Source of the DNA: an uncultured Eubacteriales bacterium
GTDB taxonomy: Bacteria > Bacillota > Clostridia > Oscillospirales > Acutalibacteraceae
Assembly: GCA_934729465.1 (NCBI GenBank)
Contig: CAKVEP010000010.1
Coordinates: 27,076 to 59,075, forward strand
Direction: 5' to 3'
Length of the DNA: 32,000 nucleotides
Shown piece after piece: positions 3,604-29,948 of this stretch. Both the position numbers and the translations under genes were made by a program. Numbering within the stretch: the first letter of the stretch is position 1; each line of letters begins with the position of its first letter. Below the pieces are notes generated by a model that saw only the letters and a list, made by a program, of their open reading frames with translations, did no database searches and was not told the DNA's origin.

Positions 3604-3669
3604 ATTTTTAAAAATCTAAAATTTGTTTTTATAAATTTATCTAAACTTAAAATTTTTTCAAAAAAACTC

Positions 3670-3698
3670 TTGACTTCTTTCACTCCTTACATTATAAT
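3670..3698 (+). promoter_or_regulatory. Sigma-A-type promoter of 5S copy 1
   Basis: TTGACT (3670-3675), a 17-nt spacer, then TATAAT (3693-3698). An A/T tract (aaaattttttcaaaaaaa) immediately upstream looks like an UP element. The RNA 5' end lies ~8 nt downstream. Confidence 0.65.
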
Positions 3699-3705
3699 AA
3701 TTTAT

Positions 3706-3821
3706 GTTAGTGTTGATGGTGATGAGGGTACACCTGTTCCCTTCTCGAACACAGTAGTTAAGCTCATTTACGTCGAAAATACTTGACCGGTGACGGTCCG
3801 GAAAGATAGATAGACGCTAAC
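3706..3821 (+). rRNA. rrf: 5S rRNA gene, stand-alone (no 16S/23S in the window)
   Basis: 116 nt. It contains CACCUGUUCCCUUCUCGAACACAGUAGUUAAGC, matching the conserved 5S helix III/loop C core. The termini GUUAGUGUU and GACGCUAAC pair to form helix I. There is a GACCG-GUGA-CGGUC hairpin in the helix IV/V arm. Confidence 0.8.
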
Positions 3822-3828
3822 ATTTATT

Positions 3829-3861
3829 AAGAGTAATCATTAAAATGATTACTCTTTTTTG
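3829..3861 (+). terminator. Intrinsic terminator after 5S copy 1
   Basis: 10-bp stem AGAGTAATCA (3830-3839) / TGATTACTCT (3846-3855) followed by a T-run. Confidence 0.75.
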
Positions 3862-3878
3862 TTGTTGTTTTTATTTTA

Positions 3879-4361
3879 TTATTCGAATTTTTTGGCAAGT
3901 TGATTTCCTCCAAAACCTCCTAAAGCGCCCATTCCAACTACAGTTGCTCCAGCGCCTATAACTCCCCCTACTACTGCTCCGATAGCAGTTTTCAATTTTC
4001 TTTCATCTTCGCTACGCTTACGGTTAGCGTCGTAACTAATTTTTCCTCCCAGTGCACCGAACATCCAAAATGTGTACTTTGATATCAATATACCTAAGGT
4101 AGTTCCTGCACCAGCTCCCAATGCCATTCCGACATCTCTTGTTGTCTTACTTCCTCCCGAGATTTCTTCTAATTCATCGGGGGTTAATTCTTTGCTAACC
4201 TCATGCACTCCTTCTATAATTAGATTTATTTCTTCATCAGTGAAGTCTAAACCTGCTTCGTGGAGCATATTTTTTACAGACTCAAAATCTGTTTGCCTTG
4301 CTAATTTCTCCATAAATTCCTTGTCGTTAACTACCTTTTCCAAAACTTTTTCATCTACCAT
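3879..4361 (-). CDS. Bacteriocin-like precursor: 70-aa Nif11-like leader ending in GG plus a 90-aa glycine-zipper core (paralogue 1)
   Basis: The N-terminus MVDEKVLEKVVNDKEFMEKLARQTDFESVKNMLHEAGLDFTDEE...LTPDELEEISGG fits the Nif11-type leader pattern (L..kv..D..f.ekL, eaGf.ft.eEl, ls.eELe.vsGG). The core has two Gly/Ala-rich hydrophobic segments (GMALGAGAGTTLG; IGAVVGGVIGAGATVVGMGALGGFGG) separated by a charged loop. An AGGAGG SD lies 9 nt before the ATG. Confidence 0.7.
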   Translation of the reverse strand: MVDEKVLEKVVNDKEFMEKLARQTDFESVKNMLHEAGLDFTDEEINLIIEGVHEVSKELTPDELEEISGGSKTTRDVGMALGAGAGTTLGILISKYTFWMFGALGGKISYDANRKRSEDERKLKTAIGAVVGGVIGAGATVVGMGALGGFGGNQLAKKFE

Positions 4362-4396
4362 TGTTTTATACCTCCTATAATTTAATTTGCAGGAAT

Positions 4397-4425
4397 ATTA
4401 TAACATTATACATTAGGTTTGTCAA
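4397..4425 (-). promoter_or_regulatory. Consensus sigma-A promoter of precursor 1
   Basis: On the minus strand: TTGACA (4425-4420), a 17-nt spacer, then TATAAT (4402-4397). Confidence 0.65.
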
Positions 4426-4472
4426 TACATTTTGTGCAAAAAATAAAACTTAAAATTTTTTCAAAAAAACCC

Positions 4473-4501
4473 TTGACTTCTTTCACTCCTTACATTATAA
4501 T
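4473..4501 (+). promoter_or_regulatory. Sigma-A-type promoter of 5S copy 2
   Basis: Identical to 3670-3698: TTGACT, 17 nt, TATAAT, with an upstream A/T tract. Confidence 0.65.
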
Positions 4502-4508
4502 AATTTAT

Positions 4509-4624
4509 GTTAGTGTTGATGGTGATGAGGGTACACCTGTTCCCTTCTCGAACACAGTAGTTAAGCTCATTTACGTCGAAAATACTTGATCGGTGACGGT
4601 CCGGAAAGATAGATAGATGCTAAC
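4509..4624 (+). rRNA. rrf: 5S rRNA gene, stand-alone, copy 2
   Basis: It differs from copy 1 at two positions, both C to T (4567 and 4618). Both fall in helices and leave a G-U wobble pair. Confidence 0.8.
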
Positions 4625-4631
4625 ATTTATT

Positions 4632-4664
4632 AAGAGTAATCATTAAAATGATTACTCTTTTTTG
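4632..4664 (+). terminator. Intrinsic terminator after 5S copy 2
   Basis: Same hairpin and T-run as 3829-3861. Confidence 0.75.
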
Positions 4665-4678
4665 TTGTTCTTATTTTA

Positions 4679-5161
4679 TTATTCAAAAGCTTTGGCAAAT
4701 TGATTTCCTCCAAAGCCTCCTAAAACGCCCATTCCAACTACAGTTGCTCCGGCACTTATAATTCCTCCTACCACCATTCCGACAGTAGCTTTCTCTATCC
4801 TTTCAAGTTCGCTACACTTACGGTTAATGGCATAACTAATTTTTCTGCCCAGTGTACTGCCTAACAAAAATGTGAGCACTGACGCCGGTAAACCTACGGC
4901 AGTTCCTATACCGGCTCCTATTGTCGTTCCGATAACTCTTGTTGTCTTACTTCCTCCAGAGATTTCTTCTAATTCATCGGGGGTTAATTCTTTGCTAACC
5001 TCATGCACTCCTTCTATAATTAGATTTATTTCTTCATCAGTGAAGTCTAAACCTGCTTCGTGGAGCATATTTTTTACAGACTCAAAATCTGTTTGCCTTG
5101 CTAATTTCTCCATAAATTCCTTGTCGTTAACTACCTTTTCCAAAACTTTTTCATCTACCAT
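4679..5161 (-). CDS. Bacteriocin-like precursor: Nif11-like GG leader plus glycine-zipper core (paralogue 2)
   Basis: The 70-aa leader is identical in protein to paralogue 1, with one synonymous nt difference seen. The 90-aa core is the same length but differs at 34 positions by my manual alignment. The C-terminal GATVVGMG.LGGFGGNQ.AK.FE is conserved. Confidence 0.7.
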   Translation of the reverse strand: MVDEKVLEKVVNDKEFMEKLARQTDFESVKNMLHEAGLDFTDEEINLIIEGVHEVSKELTPDELEEISGGSKTTRVIGTTIGAGIGTAVGLPASVLTFLLGSTLGRKISYAINRKCSELERIEKATVGMVVGGIISAGATVVGMGVLGGFGGNQFAKAFE

Positions 5162-5194
5162 TTTTATACCTCCTACAATTCAATTTATAGGAGT

Positions 5195-5223
5195 ATTATA
5201 ACATTATACATTTCATTTGTCAA
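5195..5223 (-). promoter_or_regulatory. Consensus sigma-A promoter of precursor 2
   Basis: On the minus strand: TTGACA (5223-5218), a 17-nt spacer, then TATAAT (5200-5195). Confidence 0.65.
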
Positions 5224-5322
5224 TATATTTTGTACAAAATTGTATAAATTTACTACCGTTTATCAAAAATAATTAATATCAGTAACTATTTTCTTTCAAA
5301 AAACCTTATAAAACAAACATAA

Positions 5323-5352: not shown

Positions 5353-5464
5353 TTTTACTATTTTTTTAATCCTGTTTTTTATTCTTAAACATATTAATCA
5401 TAAATCGCATATATTCCGTTCCTACGGAAATACCAATTCCTGTTGCTAAACCTGCGTCTATATT

Positions 5465-5581
5465 CTAAGCGCCTATTAAGTGAGCTACTTTAAAAAGTGC
5501 CAACCCAAGAGCAATTCCGCCAATTACTTTTAGCAATATTTCCGGAATGTAACTAATAAACTTGATTAACGATTTTATCAT
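5465..5581 (-). CDS. 38-aa hydrophobic peptide MIKSLIKFISYIPEILLKVIGGIALGLALFKVAHLIGA; the same frame stays open past the TAG for 32 more codons, to 5366
   Basis: Hand translation. It starts 30 nt downstream of guaB on the same strand, with only a weak SD (AAGAAGTGA). The post-TAG segment NIDAGLATGIGISVGTEYMRFMINMFKNKKQD also looks like coding sequence, so this may be a 71-codon gene with a premature stop. Confidence 0.3.
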   Translation of the reverse strand: MIKSLIKFISYIPEILLKVIGGIALGLALFKVAHLIGA

Positions 5582-5611
5582 GTCGGTCACTTCTTTTATA
5601 AATTAGTGTGA

Positions 5612-8394: not shown

Positions 8395-8868
8395 CTATCT
8401 CCTTTTACTATATTTTCCCCTAAAAAGTTTATTCTCTAGCACCCAACCTAAGACTAGATATATAAATATTCCGGTAAGTAAACAAAAAAACTCGTGCACA
8501 ACAACCTCTAAGCTTGCTACTCCAAGTCCCCAAAATTTACTTATATATCCACTTAAAACTGCTACCGATAGACCTACAAATAGTGGAATTGATATATTCT
8601 TAGCGATATTTACGGTGTATGTCTTAAGCATCGCCATAAGAAGCGCTCCAAATACCGCATATTCTGTAAAAATCAGTCCTCCGATAACGTCGTTTGGGGT
8701 AAAAATTCTTTTAATATTTAATGCCTTCATTATACTATTTATTCCGTCAGACAACAATTTAATCTGCGACTGCGACGTTAATCCAAGACCCGGATAAAAT
8801 AAAATAATCCCCGCAGCCATCACAACCAAAACCGTTGTTACTACGCTTGAAAATCTTATATTCGACAT
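8395..8868 (-). CDS. Hypothetical multi-pass integral membrane protein (157 aa)
   Basis: The ORF is packed between spo0J (4-nt gap) and serS (4-nt gap). It has four to five hydrophobic segments. I do not recognise the family. Confidence 0.6.
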
Positions 8869-15586: not shown

Positions 15587-16576
15587 CTATTTTTTCTTTT
15601 CTTTTTTTCCGTTATCTCTAAGATTTTCTTTGTTCTCCGGCAAAACCACTTCTTTTAGAGATTTTATCATCTGAATTTTACTTTCGTTAATCTCTAAAAG
15701 CGCAAGCCTCTTTGCCTCGGATTTTGCGTTGATTGTGTATTCATTACAATACTTCCCGAATATAACACTTTGAATCATTGCGATAATTGAATTTATTATC
15801 CAGTATATTCCAACTGCACCGGGGGTAGTATAGAGAACCCACGTAAAAAATAGCGGTAAAATATACGGTCCTATCTTTCCGCAACCGGGCATTTCCATTT
15901 GCTTGCCGCTGACTTTGTTTCTGACGTACGTAGACAGTACACCTATCGCAACATAAGCAACAGGAATAAGCCACATCATACTCTTAAACGAACTATTACT
16001 TGGCGTGTCTAGCAAATTCAAGCCCATAAAATTAAATCCACTGCTAAACTCCTCGACATCTGCGAGCTGTTCTTCCGATAGCATAGTAAGCTCACTTTTA
16101 ACGTCTGAAAATCTTCTAACAATCTCAAGTTCCGGATACTTAGCCGTCACCGACTCGCCTATTCCAGGGATTGTTGATAATTTTTGCACAGCCTGTGAAA
16201 CCGTTTGAGCCGGAATGTGAAGAGTGTTTTGAAGCGGCTTATTTACTGCTCCCAGAACCCCCATCATGAGTATAAGTGGCAAAAACATCGTCAGGCACCC
16301 TTTCATCGGGTTACCTTCTTGTTCGTAAAGCTTAGCTAGCTCCTCGTTGTATTTCTGCGGATTCTTTCCAAATTTTTTCTTTAGTTCCTCCTGCTTCGCA
16401 GCAAGCCTTGAGTTCGCCGCCATAGACTTTTGTTGTTTAAGCATAAGCGGAAACATCAAAATATTTATAAACAGCGTAAATAAAAATATCGCAACTCCGT
16501 AATTACTAACTGCATCAAAGAAAAACCACAATACATAACCAAATAAACTTCCTAAGAAATCAAATATAAATCCCAA
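15587..16576 (-). CDS. yidC: YidC/Oxa1-family membrane protein insertase
   Basis: 329 aa, multi-pass, with PLMLKQQKSM and a Lys-rich C-terminal tail. Confidence 0.9.
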   Translation of the reverse strand: MGFIFDFLGSLFGYVLWFFFDAVSNYGVAIFLFTLFINILMFPLMLKQQKSMAANSRLAAKQEELKKKFGKNPQKYNEELAKLYEQEGNPMKGCLTMFLPLILMMGVLGAVNKPLQNTLHIPAQTVSQAVQKLSTIPGIGESVTAKYPELEIVRRFSDVKSELTMLSEEQLADVEEFSSGFNFMGLNLLDTPSNSSFKSMMWLIPVAYVAIGVLSTYVRNKVSGKQMEMPGCGKIGPYILPLFFTWVLYTTPGAVGIYWIINSIIAMIQSVIFGKYCNEYTINAKSEAKRLALLEINESKIQMIKSLKEVVLPENKENLRDNGKKEKKK

Positions 16577-16603
16577 AATGAAGCTCTCCCAACTAATAAA
16601 CCT

Positions 16604-16834
16604 TTATTTTTTCTTTTTTTCAGGAACAGGGTCATAGCCCCCTCTGAACAGGGGGTTACACCTTAAAATCCTAAACAAAGAGAGAGCTAACCCTTTTAAA
16701 ACACCAAACCTCTCTATAGCTTCGATAGCGTATTCCGAGCACGTCGGCACAAACCTACACCAAGGTTTCGTGTCTTTGCAAGGCGAAATCTCTCTCTGAT
16801 AAAATTTAATAATTCTTATAAGCAGTTTTTTCAT
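16604..16834 (-). CDS. yidD: Membrane protein insertion efficiency factor YidD
   Basis: 76 aa with the [15 protein letters not shown] motif. Its ATG overlaps the rnpA stop (ATGA). Confidence 0.9.
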
Positions 16835-17166
16835 CAGATAACCCCGGCTTTTTTCATGTGAGCAGTCATTTCCCTAAGCACATCCTGCATTTTAGCTTTA
16901 TACGTTTTACTTCTTGCTACGAAAACAAAGTCACACTTTCCTTTTATCTTAGGATAAATTTCTCTAAAAGAGGTTTTAATAAGTCTCCTCGCCCTGTTTC
17001 GCTGCACAGCATTACCTATTTTTTTACTTGTTGTTACCCCTACTCTTTTTTGATGATTTCGGTTTTTGACAACATAAGTAATAAGTAGCGGCGACACATA
17101 AGAGCTTCCTTTATTGTAAGCCCTCCTGAAGTCCCTGTTTTCGCACAAAGTTAATAATTTATCCAT
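16834..17166 (-). CDS. rnpA: Ribonuclease P protein component
   Basis: RNR motif [18 protein letters not shown] placed the start at the internal ATG (MDKLLTL...), giving 110 aa. The 34-aa hydrophobic extension in the ORF track is not typical of RnpA. Confidence 0.85.
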
Positions 17167-17221
17167 AAAAAAAACCAGCCCTATTTCTGACTTAATAAAA
17201 AAAACAATACTTAAACAAAAA

Positions 17222-17246
17222 GAGACCACTAAAAAACAGTGGTCCC
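17222..17246 (-). terminator. Hairpin and U-run between rpmH and rnpA (possibly a partial terminator)
   Basis: On the minus strand: GACCACT, a 7-nt loop, AGTGGTC, then TCTCTTTTTGTTT. Confidence 0.45.
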
Positions 17247-17312
17247 GCTCGACGGAAGCACTCAGCACAATTTTATTAAACCCATAGTACTAAACGCAAA
17301 TCCAGTTTAATT

Positions 17313-17447
17313 CTAGTAAGTTAAGCGTTTTCTACCCTTAGCTCTACGACGTGCGATAACCTTTCTTCCATTACGGTCCGACATTCTTTTTCTAAAGCCA
17401 TGTTCTTTTTTTCTATGTAACTTCTTCGGTTGATACGTTCTTAACAC
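17313..17447 (-). CDS. rpmH: 50S ribosomal protein L34
   Basis: 44 aa from a GTG start preceded by GAGGAGGAG. The protein reads (M)[43 protein letters not shown]. Confidence 0.9.
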
Positions 17448-17486
17448 GACAACTCCTCCTCTCGCAAAACAAAAATTCCCTTTAAA

Positions 17487-17515
17487 ATTATATACTTTTA
17501 TATAAAACATGTCAA
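17487..17515 (-). promoter_or_regulatory. Consensus sigma-A promoter of the rpmH operon
   Basis: On the minus strand: TTGACA (17515-17510), a 17-nt spacer, then TATAAT (17492-17487). Confidence 0.65.
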
Positions 17516-17570
17516 CACCGAACTTTACGTTTATTTTAAGAGGTAAAATTTTTTATAATGTAAATTAGAT

Positions 17571-17611
17571 TTGTAATTTAATAGTTTTTATGGTATAATA
17601 ATGTTGGATAA
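17571..17611 (+). promoter_or_regulatory. dnaA promoter with an adjacent weak DnaA box
   Basis: TTGTAA (17571-17576), a 17-nt spacer ending in TGg, then TATAAT (17594-17599). GTTGGATAA (17603-17611) matches TGTGGATAA at 7 of 9 positions just downstream of the -10. Confidence 0.5.
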
Positions 17612-17665
17612 ATATGTCCTTTAATCGTATTAAAGACTCATTTTAACTCGGAGGTTTTTATTTTT

Positions 17666-18982
17666 ATGGAATCTTTTAACGAGGCGTGGGAGTTAATTTG
17701 TGATTTTTGTAAATCACGTATTACCGATGTTGCCTACAAAACTTGGATTAGTCGAATCGAACCTATAAAACTCGATTTCGATAATGGCACTGCTATATTA
17801 ATGGTGCCGAATGAATTTCACAGGCAGCTTCTAAACAGGAGCTACATGAATCTTTTAAACAGTGCTTTCAGCGAAATCTTCGGAGCTGGCTTCGATATTT
17901 GCTTGACTGTTCCTGATGAAGTAAACACAAACAACAAGAAAAATGACCAGAATCTTGCAATAGACTCTGAATACGAATTCACTTTCGACACATATATCGT
18001 TGGGTCTTCAAATAAATTCGCTCACGCTGCTGCATTGGCTGTTGCCGCAAACCCTGCGGGGGCTTACAATCCTCTGTTTATATACGGAAATTCCGGACTG
18101 GGAAAAACTCACCTTCTTTATGCAATTTGTAATGATATAAAGAAAAATCGTCCCGACATGACTACCCTTTATATAAAAGGCGATGATTTCACAAACGAAC
18201 TTATCGACTCTATAAGGAAAAACACAACAAGCGAATTTCATCAAAAATACAGAAGAACAGATATTCTCCTTGTGGACGACATCCAGTTTATAGCCGGAAA
18301 AGACTCTACTCAAGAAGAATTTTTCCATACCTTTAATTCTCTGTATGAAGCCAAAAAACAAATAGTTTTAACGTCAGACAGACCCCCAAAAGAAATTCAG
18401 ACCCTTGAAGACAGGCTTCGTACCAGGTTTGAATGGGGTCTAATTGCAGATATTCAGCCTCCGGATTTTGAAACACGTATAGCAATAGTCAAAAGGAAGG
18501 CTGAAAGTTTAGATATAAAAATACCTAACGAAGTATGCGAATACATAGCTAAAAAATTAAAAACAAACATTAGACAGCTCGAAGGAGCCGTAAAAAAGAT
18601 GAAAGCTCACCATCTTCTAGGCGGAGAACCTATGGGAATCCACACAGCTCAAATCGCTATTTCCGATATACTGAATAACGACCAGCCACCACCAATGACT
18701 GTCGAAAAAATCATAGAAGAAGTAGCACGTACTTTCGGAGTCACAGCTGCAGATATAAGGTCATCAAAAAGGTCTTCAACAATATCTAATGCTAGACAAA
18801 TTTCAATGTATGTAGTAAGGGAAATAACTCAGCTTCCTCTCGCTGCAATCGGAGAAGAATACGGTGGAAGAGACCATTCAACGATAGTTTACGCATTACA
18901 ACAAGTTGAAAAGAATATAAATAAGGATTCTAAATTAAAGGCAATGGTGGAAGATATAATAAAAAATATAAGAGACAGATAA
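17666..18982 (+). CDS. dnaA: Chromosomal replication initiator DnaA
   Basis: 438 aa, with the AAA+ Walker A GNSGLGKTHLL and the domain IV sequence GGRDHSTIVYA. Confidence 0.97.
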   Translation: MESFNEAWELICDFCKSRITDVAYKTWISRIEPIKLDFDNGTAILMVPNEFHRQLLNRSYMNLLNSAFSEIFGAGFDICLTVPDEVNTNNKKNDQNLAIDSEYEFTFDTYIVGSSNKFAHAAALAVAANPAGAYNPLFIYGNSGLGKTHLLYAICNDIKKNRPDMTTLYIKGDDFTNELIDSIRKNTTSEFHQKYRRTDILLVDDIQFIAGKDSTQEEFFHTFNSLYEAKKQIVLTSDRPPKEIQTLEDRLRTRFEWGLIADIQPPDFETRIAIVKRKAESLDIKIPNEVCEYIAKKLKTNIRQLEGAVKKMKAHHLLGGEPMGIHTAQIAISDILNNDQPPPMTVEKIIEEVARTFGVTAADIRSSKRSSTISNARQISMYVVREITQLPLAAIGEEYGGRDHSTIVYALQQVEKNINKDSKLKAMVEDIIKNIRDR

Positions 18983-24579: not shown

Positions 24580-25320
24580 ATGGATAATAAAAATGTGCGC
24601 AATGATGACGATTATGGGGGAGTAGATAGTAATATGGATTTGTCTGAAGAAGATCGAGAGTGTTCCATTCTAAACGAGGAAAGAAAAATTGAAGAAGATT
24701 TAAAGCAAGCAGAAAAAGAAGACAGTGAAAAAGATGAAGAAGAACAGGCTGTTGAATGGGATGGCTCTGAGGCTTTCCGAGTGGAGGACAAAGACGCCGA
24801 AGATTATGAGGAAAACACAACCGGAGTAAGAATTACTTATAAGCTCGAAAAAGAGGAAATTTACAAAAGCTTGAAACACAGCAAAATTTATAAGAAAAAC
24901 GTATCTATGCAGGTTAAGCATACGGTTGTTCAGGTTATTTTAATTTTACTGCTTATAATTGCTTCGGTTATTATGAAAAATCGTGTGTATGCTTACACGG
25001 CTATGGTTCCGTTGGTGTCGATTATTGGAATATGGATTTTACCGATTGTAAGCATAAAAAAATTATCGAGGGATATGTGTAAAGACAAAAACGTCAGCAT
25101 TGAGATTTTTCCTGATGTTATAGAAGTTGACGTGAACGGAGTAAAAAGTGAAATCCTTTTGGATGGCGAGTGTGAATGCGAGGAGTTTGACGGATTAATA
25201 ATTTTAAACCCGTCGAAAGGCTCGAGTTTGATAATACCGGTAAGGTCTATTGAACCGGAATTTCTTCCGGATGTGCAGGCTATGATTGTTTCGGGGACGC
25301 TGCCGAGGAAAGAGGATTAA
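24580..25320 (+). CDS. Hypothetical membrane protein: acidic N-terminus, two TM helices and a C-terminal domain (possibly YcxB-like)
   Basis: 246 aa with a strong SD (AAAGAGGAG). It has an E/D-rich first 80 residues and two adjacent hydrophobic helices, then a ~90-aa domain. The family assignment is from memory of that architecture only. Confidence 0.65.
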   Translation: MDNKNVRNDDDYGGVDSNMDLSEEDRECSILNEERKIEEDLKQAEKEDSEKDEEEQAVEWDGSEAFRVEDKDAEDYEENTTGVRITYKLEKEEIYKSLKHSKIYKKNVSMQVKHTVVQVILILLLIIASVIMKNRVYAYTAMVPLVSIIGIWILPIVSIKKLSRDMCKDKNVSIEIFPDVIEVDVNGVKSEILLDGECECEEFDGLIILNPSKGSSLIIPVRSIEPEFLPDVQAMIVSGTLPRKED

Positions 25321-27859: not shown

Positions 27860-28003
27860 ATGGGACTTATTAAAACAGTATTGCTGAGCGCTTTCGGGAC
27901 TATCGTATGCGGCAGTGTTATTGAGCGGTGGCTTACCCGTAAAATATCTGTTGCGATGAATACCTTAAAAGAACGTATGATAAAAGAAAAACACATAAAT
28001 TAA
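27860..28003 (+). CDS. Micro-ORF P1, 47 aa: MGLIKTVLLSAFGTIVCGSVIERWLTRKISVAMNTLKERMIKEKHIN
   Basis: Hand translation. A GAGG lies 7 nt before the ATG. There is no terminator between gyrA and this ORF. It is a paralogue of P3 (KTVLL; K[IV].[SV]A[MT].N). Confidence 0.5.
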   Translation: MGLIKTVLLSAFGTIVCGSVIERWLTRKISVAMNTLKERMIKEKHIN

Positions 28004-28009
28004 AACGAG

Positions 28010-28040
28010 AGTCGGTCGCTAACGGTCGGCTTTCCTTTTG
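28010..28040 (+). terminator. Possible terminator after P1
   Basis: 9-bp stem AGTCGGTCG / CGGTCGGCT (three G-U pairs) with loop CTAA, followed by TTCCTTTT. Confidence 0.4.
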
Positions 28041-28076
28041 GTGATACACAATAAATTAAAATTTTATAATAAATAA

Positions 28077-28105
28077 TTGACATTTTATTAAATTAATATT
28101 ATAAT
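28077..28105 (+). promoter_or_regulatory. Consensus sigma-A promoter (P2 module)
   Basis: TTGACA (28077-28082), a 17-nt spacer, then TATAAT (28100-28105). Confidence 0.65.
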
Positions 28106-28135
28106 TAAAACAAAGGAGGGAATTTAAAAAAGTTT

Positions 28136-28285
28136 TTGATAATTTCTGTAGGTAATTTATTAGGTGCAGCTGCTGTTGCAGTTCCGACGATTATAATTTG
28201 GAATAGTAAAGTAAATGCAATGGAAAATGAAGCTACACAGATAATTAGAGATGGAGTCAGAAAAGCTATTAATAAAAATAGTTAA
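28136..28285 (+). CDS. Micro-ORF P2, 49 aa if TTG-initiated: (M)IISVGNLLGAAAVAVPTIIIWNSKVNAMENEATQIIRDGVRKAINKNS; an N-terminally truncated paralogue of P4
   Basis: It aligns codon for codon with P4, but the ATG and the first 8 codons are replaced by the promoter/SD module. The only in-frame start is a TTG ~15 nt after GGAGGG, so this may be a pseudogene. Confidence 0.3.
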   Translation: MIISVGNLLGAAAVAVPTIIIWNSKVNAMENEATQIIRDGVRKAINKNS

Positions 28286-28309
28286 GTTGAACTAAAAATT
28301 AAAAAACAG

Positions 28310-28338
28310 TTGACATTAAGTTGTGTTCATGTTATAAT
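28310..28338 (+). promoter_or_regulatory. Consensus sigma-A promoter (P3)
   Basis: TTGACA (28310-28315), a 17-nt spacer, then TATAAT (28333-28338). Confidence 0.65.
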
Positions 28339-28368
28339 TAAATTAATAAAGGTAAAGGGGAAATTTAA

Positions 28369-28539
28369 ATGCAAATTTTAAAAACAGTATTATTAGTTGC
28401 TTTGAGTAGAGCAGTAACTATTGGTGTTTCTGTAGGGGTAGTATGGGTAACTGTTTGGGCTATGAAGAAAAAGGTTGTTTCTGCCACACGTAATGTAATG
28501 AATGCTTGTGTTGAAGAAGCTGCTTTGGCAGGAAGATAG
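28369..28539 (+). CDS. Micro-ORF P3, 56 aa: MQILKTVLLVALSRAVTIGVSVGVVWVTVWAMKKKVVSATRNVMNACVEEAALAGR
   Basis: Hand translation. An AAAGGGG SD lies 8 nt before the ATG, and the consensus promoter is 30 nt upstream of the SD. Confidence 0.6.
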   Translation: MQILKTVLLVALSRAVTIGVSVGVVWVTVWAMKKKVVSATRNVMNACVEEAALAGR

Positions 28540-28662
28540 ATTTAGGCGGAATATTTATAGTTGTTGCAAGGTGATAGGTTTTATATATTACTAAAAAATT
28601 TCGTAATATGTTTAATTGAAAATATAATGGTGCAATTTAATATATTAGAAGGAGAATTTTAA

Positions 28663-28824
28663 ATGATAGATTTTTTAAAAAAGTTTTTGATAATTTCTGT
28701 AGGTAATTTATTAGGTACAGCTGCTGTTGCAGTTCCGATGATTATAATTTTGAATAGTAAAGTAAATGCAATGGAAAATGAAGCTATACAGATGATTAGA
28801 GAAGTTATTAATGGAAATAGTTAA
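28663..28824 (+). CDS. Micro-ORF P4, 53 aa: MIDFLKKFLIISVGNLLGTAAVAVPMIIILNSKVNAMENEAIQMIREVINGNS
   Basis: Hand translation. An AAGGAG SD lies 8 nt before the ATG. Its own promoter is unclear (a TATAAT at 28623-28628 with a poor -35), so it may be read through from P3. Confidence 0.55.
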   Translation: MIDFLKKFLIISVGNLLGTAAVAVPMIIILNSKVNAMENEAIQMIREVINGNS

Positions 28825-28849
28825 GTTGAACTAAAAATTAAAAAAACAG

Positions 28850-28878
28850 TTGACATTTTATTAAGTTAATGTTATAAT
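28850..28878 (+). promoter_or_regulatory. Consensus sigma-A promoter (P5 module; homologous to the P2 module)
   Basis: TTGACA (28850-28855), a 17-nt spacer, then TATAAT (28873-28878). Confidence 0.65.
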
Positions 28879-28910
28879 TAAAGCGAGAATAAAACAAAGG
28901 AGGAATTCAA

Positions 28911-29021
28911 ATGAAAACTTTTAAAAAAATATTGATGATTTATACAGCTAATGTTCTAAGTTTAGCAACTGTTAGAGGAATAGAAATATTAATTTGTACG
29001 AAAACAGATTGGCTTAGTTAA
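28911..29021 (+). CDS. Micro-ORF P5, 36 aa: MKTFKKILMIYTANVLSLATVRGIEILICTKTDWLS
   Basis: Hand translation. An AAAGGAGG SD lies 7 nt before the ATG. Confidence 0.55.
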   Translation: MKTFKKILMIYTANVLSLATVRGIEILICTKTDWLS

Positions 29022-29057
29022 TAAGTGCATTTTCCTAAGTTTATGCTATGAGAAAGG

Positions 29058-29083
29058 CTAGCTGGTAACAGCTAGTTTTTTTT
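29058..29083 (+). terminator. Intrinsic terminator after P5
   Basis: CTAGCTG, loop GTAA, CAGCTAG, followed by eight T. Confidence 0.75.
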
Positions 29084-29125
29084 ATTAAGGAGCAAAAATA
29101 AGTTTTAAATTTATTTTAAAAATAG

Positions 29126-29154
29126 TTGACTTTGAGTTGAATCTATGTTTTAAT
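29126..29154 (+). promoter_or_regulatory. Sigma-A-type promoter (P6)
   Basis: TTGACT (29126-29131), a 17-nt spacer, then TTTAAT (29149-29154). Confidence 0.55.
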
Positions 29155-29184
29155 TGAATTAACAAAAGTAAAGGAGGAATTCAA

Positions 29185-29295
29185 ATGAAAACTTTTAAAA
29201 AAATATTGATGATTTATACAGCTAATGTTCTAAGTTTAGCAACTGTTAGAGGAATAGAAATATTAATTTGTACGAAAACAGATTGGCTTAGTTAA
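29185..29295 (+). CDS. Micro-ORF P6, 36 aa, identical to P5
   Basis: It is the second copy of the 274-bp unit. Confidence 0.55.
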   Translation: MKTFKKILMIYTANVLSLATVRGIEILICTKTDWLS

Positions 29296-29331
29296 TAAGT
29301 GCATTTTCCTAAGTTTATGCTATGAGAAAGG

Positions 29332-29357
29332 CTAGCTGGTAACAGCTAGTTTTTTTT
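29332..29357 (+). terminator. Intrinsic terminator after P6
   Basis: Identical to 29058-29083. Confidence 0.75.
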
Positions 29358-29399
29358 ATTAAGGAGCAAAAATAAGTTTTAAATTTATTTTAAAAATAG

Positions 29400-29428
29400 T
29401 TGACTTTGAGTTGAATCTATGTTTTAAT
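29400..29428 (+). promoter_or_regulatory. Sigma-A-type promoter (P7)
   Basis: Identical to 29126-29154. Confidence 0.55.
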
Positions 29429-29458
29429 TGAATTAACAAAAGTAAAGGAGGAATTCAA

Positions 29459-29590
29459 ATGAAATTAACTGGAAGAGCTTTGTTTGATAATTTTAGCAAA
29501 TATTTAGTTTCGATTTCAATTAAAATAAGAAATGAATTAAATAAAAATACTCAAGTGCTACCGCCTAACAAGAGGCAAGAAAAGAAATAA
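29459..29590 (+). CDS. Micro-ORF P7, 43 aa, basic and not hydrophobic: MKLTGRALFDNFSKYLVSISIKIRNELNKNTQVLPPNKRQEKK
   Basis: It uses the same promoter/SD/ATG-AAA module as P5 and P6 but has an unrelated body. A strong terminator follows. Confidence 0.4.
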   Translation: MKLTGRALFDNFSKYLVSISIKIRNELNKNTQVLPPNKRQEKK

Positions 29591-29624
29591 TTTGATTTAT
29601 AAATGCATATATTGAATAAAGTTG

Positions 29625-29657
29625 AAAGTCAGCTAGCAAAGGCTGACTTTTTATTTT
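29625..29657 (+). terminator. Intrinsic terminator after P7
   Basis: AAAGTCAGC (29625-29633) / GCTGACTTT (29642-29650), followed by TTATTTTTATT. Confidence 0.75.
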
Positions 29658-29948
29658 TATTAAAATTTAATTCATGTTTAATAAATATTAAAGTATATGA
29701 GTTGAATTTTTAATTGCTTTTGTGTTAGCATATGCTTTAATAATGAGTATAATTAGCAATTTAGATATCAGAAATTTATTTTAAAGAAACGAGGTTGGTT
29801 TTAATAAGTTACAATTTAGCAAGGTATTTGAGATGCTTTATAGGAAACCTGATAACTTATGGATTTTTATATTGGCGTTTTAAACCTTATGTTGATGAAT
29901 ACATCGTAAAAGGTGTGAATGGGGCGAAAAATATAAGAAGCAAAGCAG

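Follow-up and report, generated by a model that had tools for sequence, protein, structure and literature searches.

Paired Nif11-type double-glycine precursor genes with diverging glycine-zipper cores beside 5S rRNA genes in an uncultured gut Clostridia bacterium

Overview of the Precursor Locus

The contig CAKVEP010000010.1 of an uncultured Oscillospirales-like Clostridia bacterium, represented in human-gut metagenomes including Hadza and Nepal samples, was analyzed over a stretch of 32,000 nucleotides (hereafter the window). Two adjacent genes within this stretch, precursor A and precursor B, each encode a protein of 160 amino acids (aa) composed of a 70-aa leader of the Nif11 type, which ends in a double glycine (GG), and a 90-aa core rich in glycine-zipper motifs. 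According to the interpretation favored here, held with a probability of about 0.5, both proteins are GG-cleaved precursors that would be exported by a peptidase-domain ABC exporter (PCAT, C39) encoded elsewhere, and the released products of 9.1 and 9.0 kDa, respectively, would represent unmodified, cationic two-helix glycine-zipper peptides acting on competitor membranes, each of them singly. Cleavage, export and activity of the peptides are what we infer from the features described below.

Precursor Genes and Their Nif11-Type Leaders

Precursor A is identical to the database protein P0018, which occurs on 10 contigs, and precursor B to P0040, found on 16 contigs. Codon-by-codon comparison showed that the two leaders, both ending in ELEEISGG, differ at 1 of 210 bases, a synonymous change in codon 68 (TCG/TCT). 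In contrast, differences in the cores affect 60 of 273 bases, counting the stop codon, and 34 of 90 residues, namely 18 of 35 in the first glycine-rich helix (residues 71–105), 7 of 19 in the charged loop (106–124) and 9 of 36 in helix 2 and the tail (125–160). The string GATVVGMG.LGGFGGNQ.AK.FE is kept in both cores, and the only cysteine is C116 of core B, core A having none. An earlier interpretation made from the letters alone (hereafter the sequence-only reading) had described protein-identical leaders with one synonymous change, 34 core differences clustered in helix 1 and the charged loop, a conserved C-terminus and a near absence of cysteine with one in the second core; all of these observations were reproduced. 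Since silent differences amount to 1 in ~40 silent sites of the leader as compared to 13.3 in 66.5 of the core (Fisher P 0.015; Poisson P 0.003), the contrast between leader and core is not due to chance.

Both precursor genes possess their own TTGACA-17-TGnTATAAT promoter (12/12 matches) and an AGGAGG ribosome-binding site. A regular expression for the GG-leader motif, applied to the window, matched nothing beyond these two open reading frames (ORFs). Moreover, an inverted repeat upstream of the -35 boxes (TTTTGNNCAAAA) was considered as an operator and dropped, as locus L095 does not contain it.

The leaders were compared to the curated hidden Markov models (HMMs) of the Nif11 family. TIGR03798 was matched with 37.2 and 37.0 bits by A and B, respectively (cut-off 32.3 bits), with residues 7–70 aligned to model positions 10–68 of 68, so that the alignment reaches the GG, and PF07862 (Nif11) was matched with 25.4 and 25.3 bits (gathering score 23.8). 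The sequence-only reading had staked its assignment on hits to precisely these two models, and both were obtained. Furthermore, TIGR03798 was matched by 11 of 12 family members at E <= 0.1, and the best sequence match of the family profile in the PDB was 9zn4_A, annotated as ‘Nif11 domain-containing protein’ (E 0.0019). The GG is located at leader position 70, which is also its average position in precursors of the Nif11-derived N11P family (Haft 2010). Judged by these matches, the leader is a Nif11-type double-glycine leader and a member of the TIGR03798 family.

Within the last 14 leader residues (KELTPDELEEISGG), L-12, E-8, L-7, I-4, G-2 and G-1 form the canonical exporter-peptidase motif L(-12)xxxE(-8)L(-7)xxI(-4)xGG. 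Among homologues down to 28% identity, L59 (-12), G69 and G70 are invariant; E63 (-8) and L64 (-7) are kept in 90% or more of them, and only I or V occurs at position -4. These residues correspond to the ComA consensus and are those seated in the pockets of LahT; moreover, leaders of the Nif11 type from a Lachnospiraceae strain are among the substrates that LahT150 cleaves (Bobeica 2019). The leader is acidic, with an isoelectric point (pI) of 4.25 and a net charge of -13. In the AlphaFold2 model, its predicted local distance difference test (pLDDT) values are 72–86 over residues 1–50 and decrease to 53–61 ahead of the GG.

Features of the Glycine-Zipper Cores

Cleavage behind the GG is predicted to yield mature peptides of 9126.5 Da (A) and 9002.4 Da (B, with its one cysteine), both with a pI of 10.0. 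The cores contain 19–21% glycine and 7–8 overlapping GxxxG motifs, carry a net charge of +5 to +6 and include 11–15 serine and threonine residues and 0–1 cysteine; glycine, alanine, valine and isoleucine together account for 46–48% of the residues. Helix 2 shows transmembrane-grade hydropathy (peak 1.9–2.0), and helix 1 of A is marginal, below the transmembrane level (1.27). Among homologues, the core positions G82, G86, G90, G105 and G128 are invariant. A Foldseek search of the low-confidence AlphaFold2 model against the PDB found nothing (best E 1.4), and the anti-phage defense HMMs of PADLOC and the phage HMMs of PHROGs gave no significant match (best E 0.012–0.09).

Exchange of Leaders and Cores and Selection Acting on Them

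In the population of the window’s species, core A occupies the downstream slot of the locus in nearly every case. The upstream slot is variable: B, B' and C were found there, as was an A-like core ending in a B tail. Two leader alleles, L1 and L2, were distinguished. They differ at 29–30 of 210 bases, with 17 of the changes silent and 12 leading to a replacement, corresponding to a silent divergence (dS) of ~0.65 and a replacement divergence (dN) of ~0.07. The A gene of the window differs from that of L010 at 3 core bases and at 29 leader bases, and the loci L097, L098 and L103 combine L2 upstream with L1 downstream. Simple concerted evolution was rejected as the origin of identical leaders, since these three hold two different leader alleles in one locus. 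The two cores of L103 are both of type A and almost the same, differing at 15 nt. Within the core, helix-1 types and tail types occur in all four possible pairings (P0018, P0029, P0004, P0037), which demonstrates recombination inside the core. Taken together, the allele combinations show that leader and core behave as modules exchanged independently of each other, through recombination among paralogues and among alleles. Since two old leader alleles recombine freely with the core types, the identical leaders in the window reflect recombination or gene conversion and are not a sign of a universally conserved leader. The sequence-only reading had proposed a conserved leader joined to a variable core; this description fits the window, but in the population the two old leader alleles mix with the cores.

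For the leader, dN/dS is ~0.1 (L1 vs. L2), with a silent excess of P 3e-6. Between cores A and B, dN/dS amounts to 1.17 over the whole length, with values of 2.5 for helix 1 and 0.54 for helix 2 and the tail; between cores B and C, ~24.5 replacement changes stand against 0.5 silent ones (P 0.008). Of the segregating changes, 17 in the leader are silent and 12 lead to a replacement, as compared to 10 and 52, respectively, in the core (Fisher P 7e-5). These values show purifying selection on the leader and diversifying selection on the core, with helix 1 as its main target.

Tandem Duplication of a 5S rRNA–Precursor Unit

Positions 3643–5245 of the window represent a tandem duplication of an ~800-bp unit consisting of a 5S rRNA gene and a precursor gene, with a direct-repeat spacing of 800–803 bp (Table 1). 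Identity between unit 1 and unit 2 is 96–100% in the 5S block, 62–88% in the core, 100% in the leader and 84–88% in the promoter and untranslated region. Locus L102, an independent assembly, contains the same allele pair. The gene pair arose by tandem duplication of this unit. Neither the 5S rRNA genes nor the duplication were part of the sequence-only reading, which had also not noticed that the window covers oriC.

The hairpin at 3829–3856 was called as a terminator on the plus strand only; read on the minus strand, it continues with AAUAAAUGUU. Both hairpins (3829–3856 and 4632–4659) carry their U-tract on the 5S strand only, so that transcripts of precursor B could read antisense through 5S copy 2 into gene A. 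As a separate observation, both 5S genes are encoded on the plus strand at a distance of ~13–15 kb to the left of the inferred oriC and are thereby oriented head-on to replication, which is unusual for rRNA genes.

Table 1. Features of the precursor locus; positions refer to the window, and Rfam scores are to be read against the RF00001 gathering score of 38.
Feature	Position	Strand	Remarks
Tandem repeat unit 1	3643..4445		5S rRNA gene with promoter, hairpin, precursor A with promoter
Promoter of 5S copy 1	3670..3698	+	TTGACT-17-TATAAT, 11/12 matches
Stand-alone 5S rRNA gene copy 1	3706..3822	+	Rfam RF00001 82.1 bits, full model 1-120; convergent with precursor A
Hairpin between 5S copy 1 and precursor A	3829..3856	+	U-tract on plus (5S) strand only
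Precursor A	3879..4361	-	160 aa; leader (aa 1-70) 4152-4361; core (aa 71-160) 3882-4151; stop codon 3879-3881
Promoter of precursor A	4397..4425	-	TTGACA-17-TGnTATAAT, 12/12 matches; followed by AGGAGG ribosome-binding site
Tandem repeat unit 2	4446..5245		5S rRNA gene with promoter, hairpin, precursor B with promoter
Promoter of 5S copy 2	4473..4501	+	11/12 matches
Stand-alone 5S rRNA gene copy 2	4509..4625	+	Rfam 82.9 bits; convergent with precursor B
Hairpin between 5S copy 2 and precursor B	4632..4659	+	U-tract on plus (5S) strand only
Precursor B	4679..5161	-	160 aa; leader 4952-5161; core 4682-4951
Promoter of precursor B	5195..5223	-	12/12 matches, TG-extended -10
Small membrane-protein ORF between guaB and precursor B	5366..5590	-	Two-helix; in-frame TAG at codon 39 splits it into 41 aa and a 32-aa remainder

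Distribution of the Precursor Family

A word-indexed search of 5.8 billion proteins returned five clusters, and a profile search raised the total to ten. Exhaustive HMMER searching of 1.84 billion representatives with residues 57–160 retrieved the family itself and one distant relative, P0009; the low-complexity giants P0006–P0008 and P0010, also obtained in this search, were discounted. In the exhaustive search, the family turned up only in one gut/rumen Oscillospirales-like clade. Its members fall into group 1, representing the window’s species with ~35 intact protein alleles on >200 contigs, group 2 with 35–42% identity (P0009, P0012) and group 3 from the rumen with 28–30% identity (P0011, P0013, P0014). 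Screening of plasmid and phage collections by tblastn gave no match, and a scan of GTDB representative genomes revealed no family member; the amylase of the nearest GTDB representative is just 58% identical. A scan of metagenome contigs added two further loci, both belonging to the window’s species. Moreover, full-text literature searches for Nif11 combined with glycine zipper or with unmodified gut bacteriocins yielded no report of this family.

In all contexts visible, the precursor gene lies in or beside the guaB–amylase–phosphorylase–zapA stretch, and a 5S gene adjoins it in the window’s species, in L095 and in L011/L092. The order in L011 is amylase–precursor–5S–guaB, not amylase–5S–precursor, and in L011/L092 the 5S gene is upstream and divergent. 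GuaB is 85–89% identical across lineages whose precursors share only 28–42%, so the precursor evolves far faster than its neighbors but is vertically inherited. The diverged lineages (L095, L011/L092) contain a single precursor gene. One-unit contigs were also found in the window’s species, with A alone in L104 and B alone in L005 and L006; these are of low coverage and may result from assembly collapse across the 240-bp 5S or the 219-bp leader repeat, a problem that does not affect the single-gene state of the diverged lineages.

The rumen relative encodes a second Nif11-like GG-leader ORF of 116–119 aa with an unrelated core (L011 11908–12267, plus strand; L092 3499–3849, minus strand). It is located between rsmG and parA beside a 679-aa protein without Pfam hit (L092 1353–3392), and this two-gene insert is absent from the window. 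L092 further contains, at 16155–18110 and ~6 kb from the orthologous precursor, a radical-SAM/SPASM gene with an ORF on either side (125 aa and 89 aa), neither of which has a Pfam hit. This cassette resembles those for peptides that are made on ribosomes and then modified post-translationally (RiPPs) and is absent from the syntenic stretch in the window’s species.

Genomic Setting and Neighboring Genes

The window covers the oriC region, with dnaA at 17666 and the GC-skew minimum at ~19–20 kb. The plus strand carries dnaA–dnaN–recF–gyrB–gyrA, and the minus strand rnpA–yidC–jag–mnmE–mnmG–rsmG–parA–parB–serS–guaB. The precursor locus is located between guaB and an alpha-amylase/glycogen phosphorylase pair, ~13 kb from oriC, and its GC content of 0.35–0.37 is the same as that of the window. 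HMM scans detected no ABC or C39 gene in the window. The analysis was extended to ~51 kb (the window plus 9 kb beyond its left and 10 kb beyond its right end), where genes for ZapA, dUTPase, MreBCD and PBP follow on the left and small unknown ORFs, DegV, Dus, Alr and ProRS on the right. The export and immunity genes that the sequence-only reading had found to be absent from the 32 kb are thus lacking there and also within ~51 kb. The same reading had called the precursors orphans; their isolated position was confirmed, but it is a documented trait of this family and no anomaly, as N11P precursors are often encoded far from modification and export genes (Haft 2010). A search of 110 fetched loci for a related PCAT, using Walker-A, signature and C39 motifs, retrieved none.

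The small membrane-protein ORF at 5366–5590 was considered as a partner of the precursors. It is intact (69–71 aa) only in L001, L097 and L098, all of which have a type B' first core, and is broken by one or two stops in twelve contigs including the window: the TAG at codon 39 recurs in 11 contigs besides the window, and L005–L008 have a second stop at codon 11. It represents at best a decaying gene or an allele-specific partner and is a weak immunity candidate. Pfam contains no family for the small membrane ORFs.

Further ORFs of the window were recorded. Downstream of gyrA, at 27860–30516 (plus strand), an array of about ten small ORFs (36–56 aa) was found, each encoding one hydrophobic helix and a charged tail. 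Several of them have their own perfect 12/12 promoters (28077, 28310, 28850), the GC content of the array is 0.26–0.30, and a 274-bp tandem duplication (28891–29438) has generated two identical 36-aa ORFs. They belong to no Pfam family, were called as genes in variable number in the strains L110 and L111, and resemble type I toxins or small membrane peptides. In addition, a conserved 246-aa ORF between gyrB and gyrA (24580–25320, plus strand) and a 157-aa membrane protein ORF between parB and serS (8395–8868, minus strand), both without Pfam family, interrupt a gene order that is otherwise standard for origin regions and are present in related contigs.

Proposed Function and Competing Explanations

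Under the favored interpretation, each precursor gene would be transcribed from its own perfect sigma-A-type promoter, and the leader would be recognized by a PCAT encoded elsewhere in the ~1.4-Mb-plus genome. The precursor would then be cut after Gly70 and exported, probably without further modification; unmodified N11P members are allowed for as well (Haft 2010). The released peptide (9126.5 or 9002.4 Da), presumably folded into two glycine-zipper helices joined by a charged loop, would insert into the membranes of competitor cells like a class II bacteriocin or class II microcin, and the peptides most likely act singly and not as an obligate pair. The ~35 intact alleles on >200 contigs, the AGGAGG sites, the 12/12 promoters and the leader dN/dS of ~0.1 show that the genes are real and in use. 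Furthermore, the evolution of the core seems antagonism-like with respect to its dN/dS, the free combination of core parts, the upstream slot that varies between strains and the contrast to GuaB.

Several observations weigh against this interpretation. Class II bacteriocin genes normally adjoin a matched immunity gene, and no PCAT, immunity or maturase gene is present within the ~51 kb. The cores are shuffled without a linked variable partner, and in most strains the sole small membrane ORF nearby is present only as a pseudogene. The databases contained no further precursor with this leader, so that a dedicated exporter would serve only one or two substrates. Vertical inheritance at a housekeeping site and apparently constitutive consensus promoters are atypical for bacteriocins. 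Moreover, TIGR03949 was matched below its cut-off of 21.5 (B 20.5, A 13.9), with just 4 of 12 relatives matching at E <= 0.1, and scores also stayed below the cut-offs for PF10439 (Bacteriocin_IIc, 19.0 vs. 27.1), PF17508 (Microcin V, 17.3 vs. 27) and PF13488 (Gly-zipper_Omp, 14.1 vs. 25). The core fits no curated family, and in the AlphaFold2 model built from an alignment of 12 sequences (mean pLDDT 56.6) it reaches just 32–66. The sequence-only reading had inferred a toxin resemblance from the composition of the cores; their wealth of zipper motifs holds, but every bacteriocin and glycine-zipper model remained below its cut-off.

The main rival, judged unlikely, is a resident membrane protein that is never cleaved, with the Nif11-like N-domain in the cytoplasm of the producer and the glycine-zipper hairpin in its own membrane, serving a housekeeping or stress function. 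The core-genome position near oriC, maintained at the same site across lineages, the consensus promoters, the lack of exporter and immunity genes and the invariant core glycines are consistent with such a protein, as is purifying selection over the whole 70-aa leader instead of just its last 13 residues. However, a resident protein would have no reason to keep the PCAT-recognition residues (L-12, E-8, L-7, I/V-4, GG), which are the best conserved ones in the C-terminal half of the leader, and the TIGR03798 alignment extends to the GG. The acidic leader joined to a basic core with dN/dS >= 1 and the sub-transmembrane hydropathy of helix 1 of A also argue against it, and a basic loop on the inside would require the acidic N-domain of 70 aa to be moved across the membrane with no signal peptide to direct it. 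A true RiPP is considered improbable; in this case, the leader would guide enzymes encoded elsewhere to modify the core, for example by Ser/Thr dehydration, radical-SAM chemistry or acylation, before its export. N11P leaders usually guide maturases and their precursors can be distant from them (Haft 2010), the full leader is under purifying selection, each core offers 11–15 Ser and Thr residues, and the rumen locus L092 has its radical-SAM/SPASM cassette in the vicinity of the orthologous precursor. Nevertheless, this cassette is missing from the syntenic stretch here, and the cores do not show the profile of modified peptides, which are rich in Cys, Ser and Thr and have a partner maturase: they contain 0–1 Cys, their invariant positions are glycines and not modifiable residues, no maturase is encoded within ~51 kb, and 90 aa is far above typical RiPP cores (the sole average given by Haft 2010, 26 residues, refers to the NHLP family next to LanM-like proteins).

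An obligate two-peptide toxin formed by A and B, comparable to class IIb bacteriocins or to Caulobacter CdzC/CdzD as suggested by the sequence-only reading, appears quite improbable. Most contigs do contain an adjacent gene pair with different glycine-zipper cores, GxxxG motifs are typical of two-peptide bacteriocins, and B comes close to the cut-off of TIGR03949, which represents class IIb peptides (lactobin A/cerein 7B). This idea is weakened by the diverged lineages with one gene only (L095, L011/L092) and by the two almost identical A-type cores of L103; A alone (L104) and B alone (L005, L006) in the same species point in the same direction, with the reservation of assembly collapse. In addition, the G+A+V+I share of 46–48% compares to 75% in Cdz, and neither an adjacent type I secretion or CdzI-like gene nor a conserved immunity ORF was found. 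Even less credit is given to a functional 5S–precursor module, in which strong, convergent, growth-rate-controlled 5S promoters would damp the precursor during fast growth, or read-through would produce anti-5S RNA, so that output is tied to the growth state. A 5S gene stands beside every family member examined in three lineages, the U-tracts on the 5S strand leave precursor transcripts free to run into antisense 5S, and the 5S genes are head-on to replication near oriC. However, the upstream, divergent 5S gene of L011/L092 shows that the convergent geometry is not conserved, and shared ancestry of the site explains the linkage. A related speculation, regarded as a long shot, is a vertically inherited core-genome module of stand-alone 5S gene and GG-leader glycine-zipper peptide. 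By convergent interference or antisense read-through, the peptide gene would be wired to rRNA-type transcription, giving a peptide whose release would report or respond to the growth state and whose hypervariable core would serve strain discrimination and not warfare with a linked immunity gene.

With unmodified export as the favored reading, the locus would widen the range of Nif11-type leaders to include long glycine-zipper cores that stay unmodified, in a human-gut bacterium that is common although uncultured. It also offers a compact natural case of module shuffling, in which fast-diversifying cores inside an 800-bp repeat exchange an old leader kept by purifying selection. The lack of linked genes for immunity and export raises the question of how scattered precursors are handled. 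If active, the peptides would be candidate narrow-spectrum antimicrobials or gut strain-recognition factors.

Comparison with Known Systems

CdzC/CdzD of Caulobacter and the precursors described here are small proteins with a presumed N-terminal leader and extended GxxxGxxxG zippers, probably unmodified and encoded by two adjacent paralogues. No sequence similarity was detected between them. The Cdz proteins are 84–86 aa in total, carry an RTX-like signal and are encoded together with cdzAB (type I secretion system) and cdzI, whereas adjacent type I secretion and multi-transmembrane immunity genes are absent from the ~51 kb here. G, A, V and I make up 75% of the mature Cdz residues, as compared to 46–48% in the cores, and the single-gene relatives argue against a need for two proteins.

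Class II microcins (microcin V, PF17508) and class II bacteriocins (PF10439; TIGR03949, lactobin A/cerein 7B) share with the precursors a GG leader for a PCAT, a glycine-rich cationic peptide that is probably unmodified in the present case, and GxxxG helices thought to insert into target membranes. They differ in that their leaders comprise 15–25 aa, in contrast to the 70-aa Nif11-type leader found here, which has no adjacent exporter or immunity genes, and in that all three HMMs scored the precursors below cut-off.

The closest correspondence is to the N11P precursors (TIGR03798), such as prochlorosin ProcA and LahA1-9 of Lachnospiraceae C6A11. Differences concern the core, which is a 90-aa, nearly Cys-free, predicted two-helix glycine zipper instead of a short Cys/Ser/Thr-rich peptide, as well as the setting, with 1–2 copies per genome, a constant chromosomal position next to a 5S rRNA gene and no LanM, cyclodehydratase or PCAT within ~51 kb. 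Common to both are the ~70-aa Nif11-type leader scoring above cut-off with its GG at position 70, the L-12/E-8/L-7/V(I)-4 motif read by LahT150, precursor genes located away from export genes and paralogous copies with divergent cores. The precursors represent a narrowly distributed addition to the class of Nif11-leader, double-glycine peptides, with an uncharacterized core and in an unusual setting.

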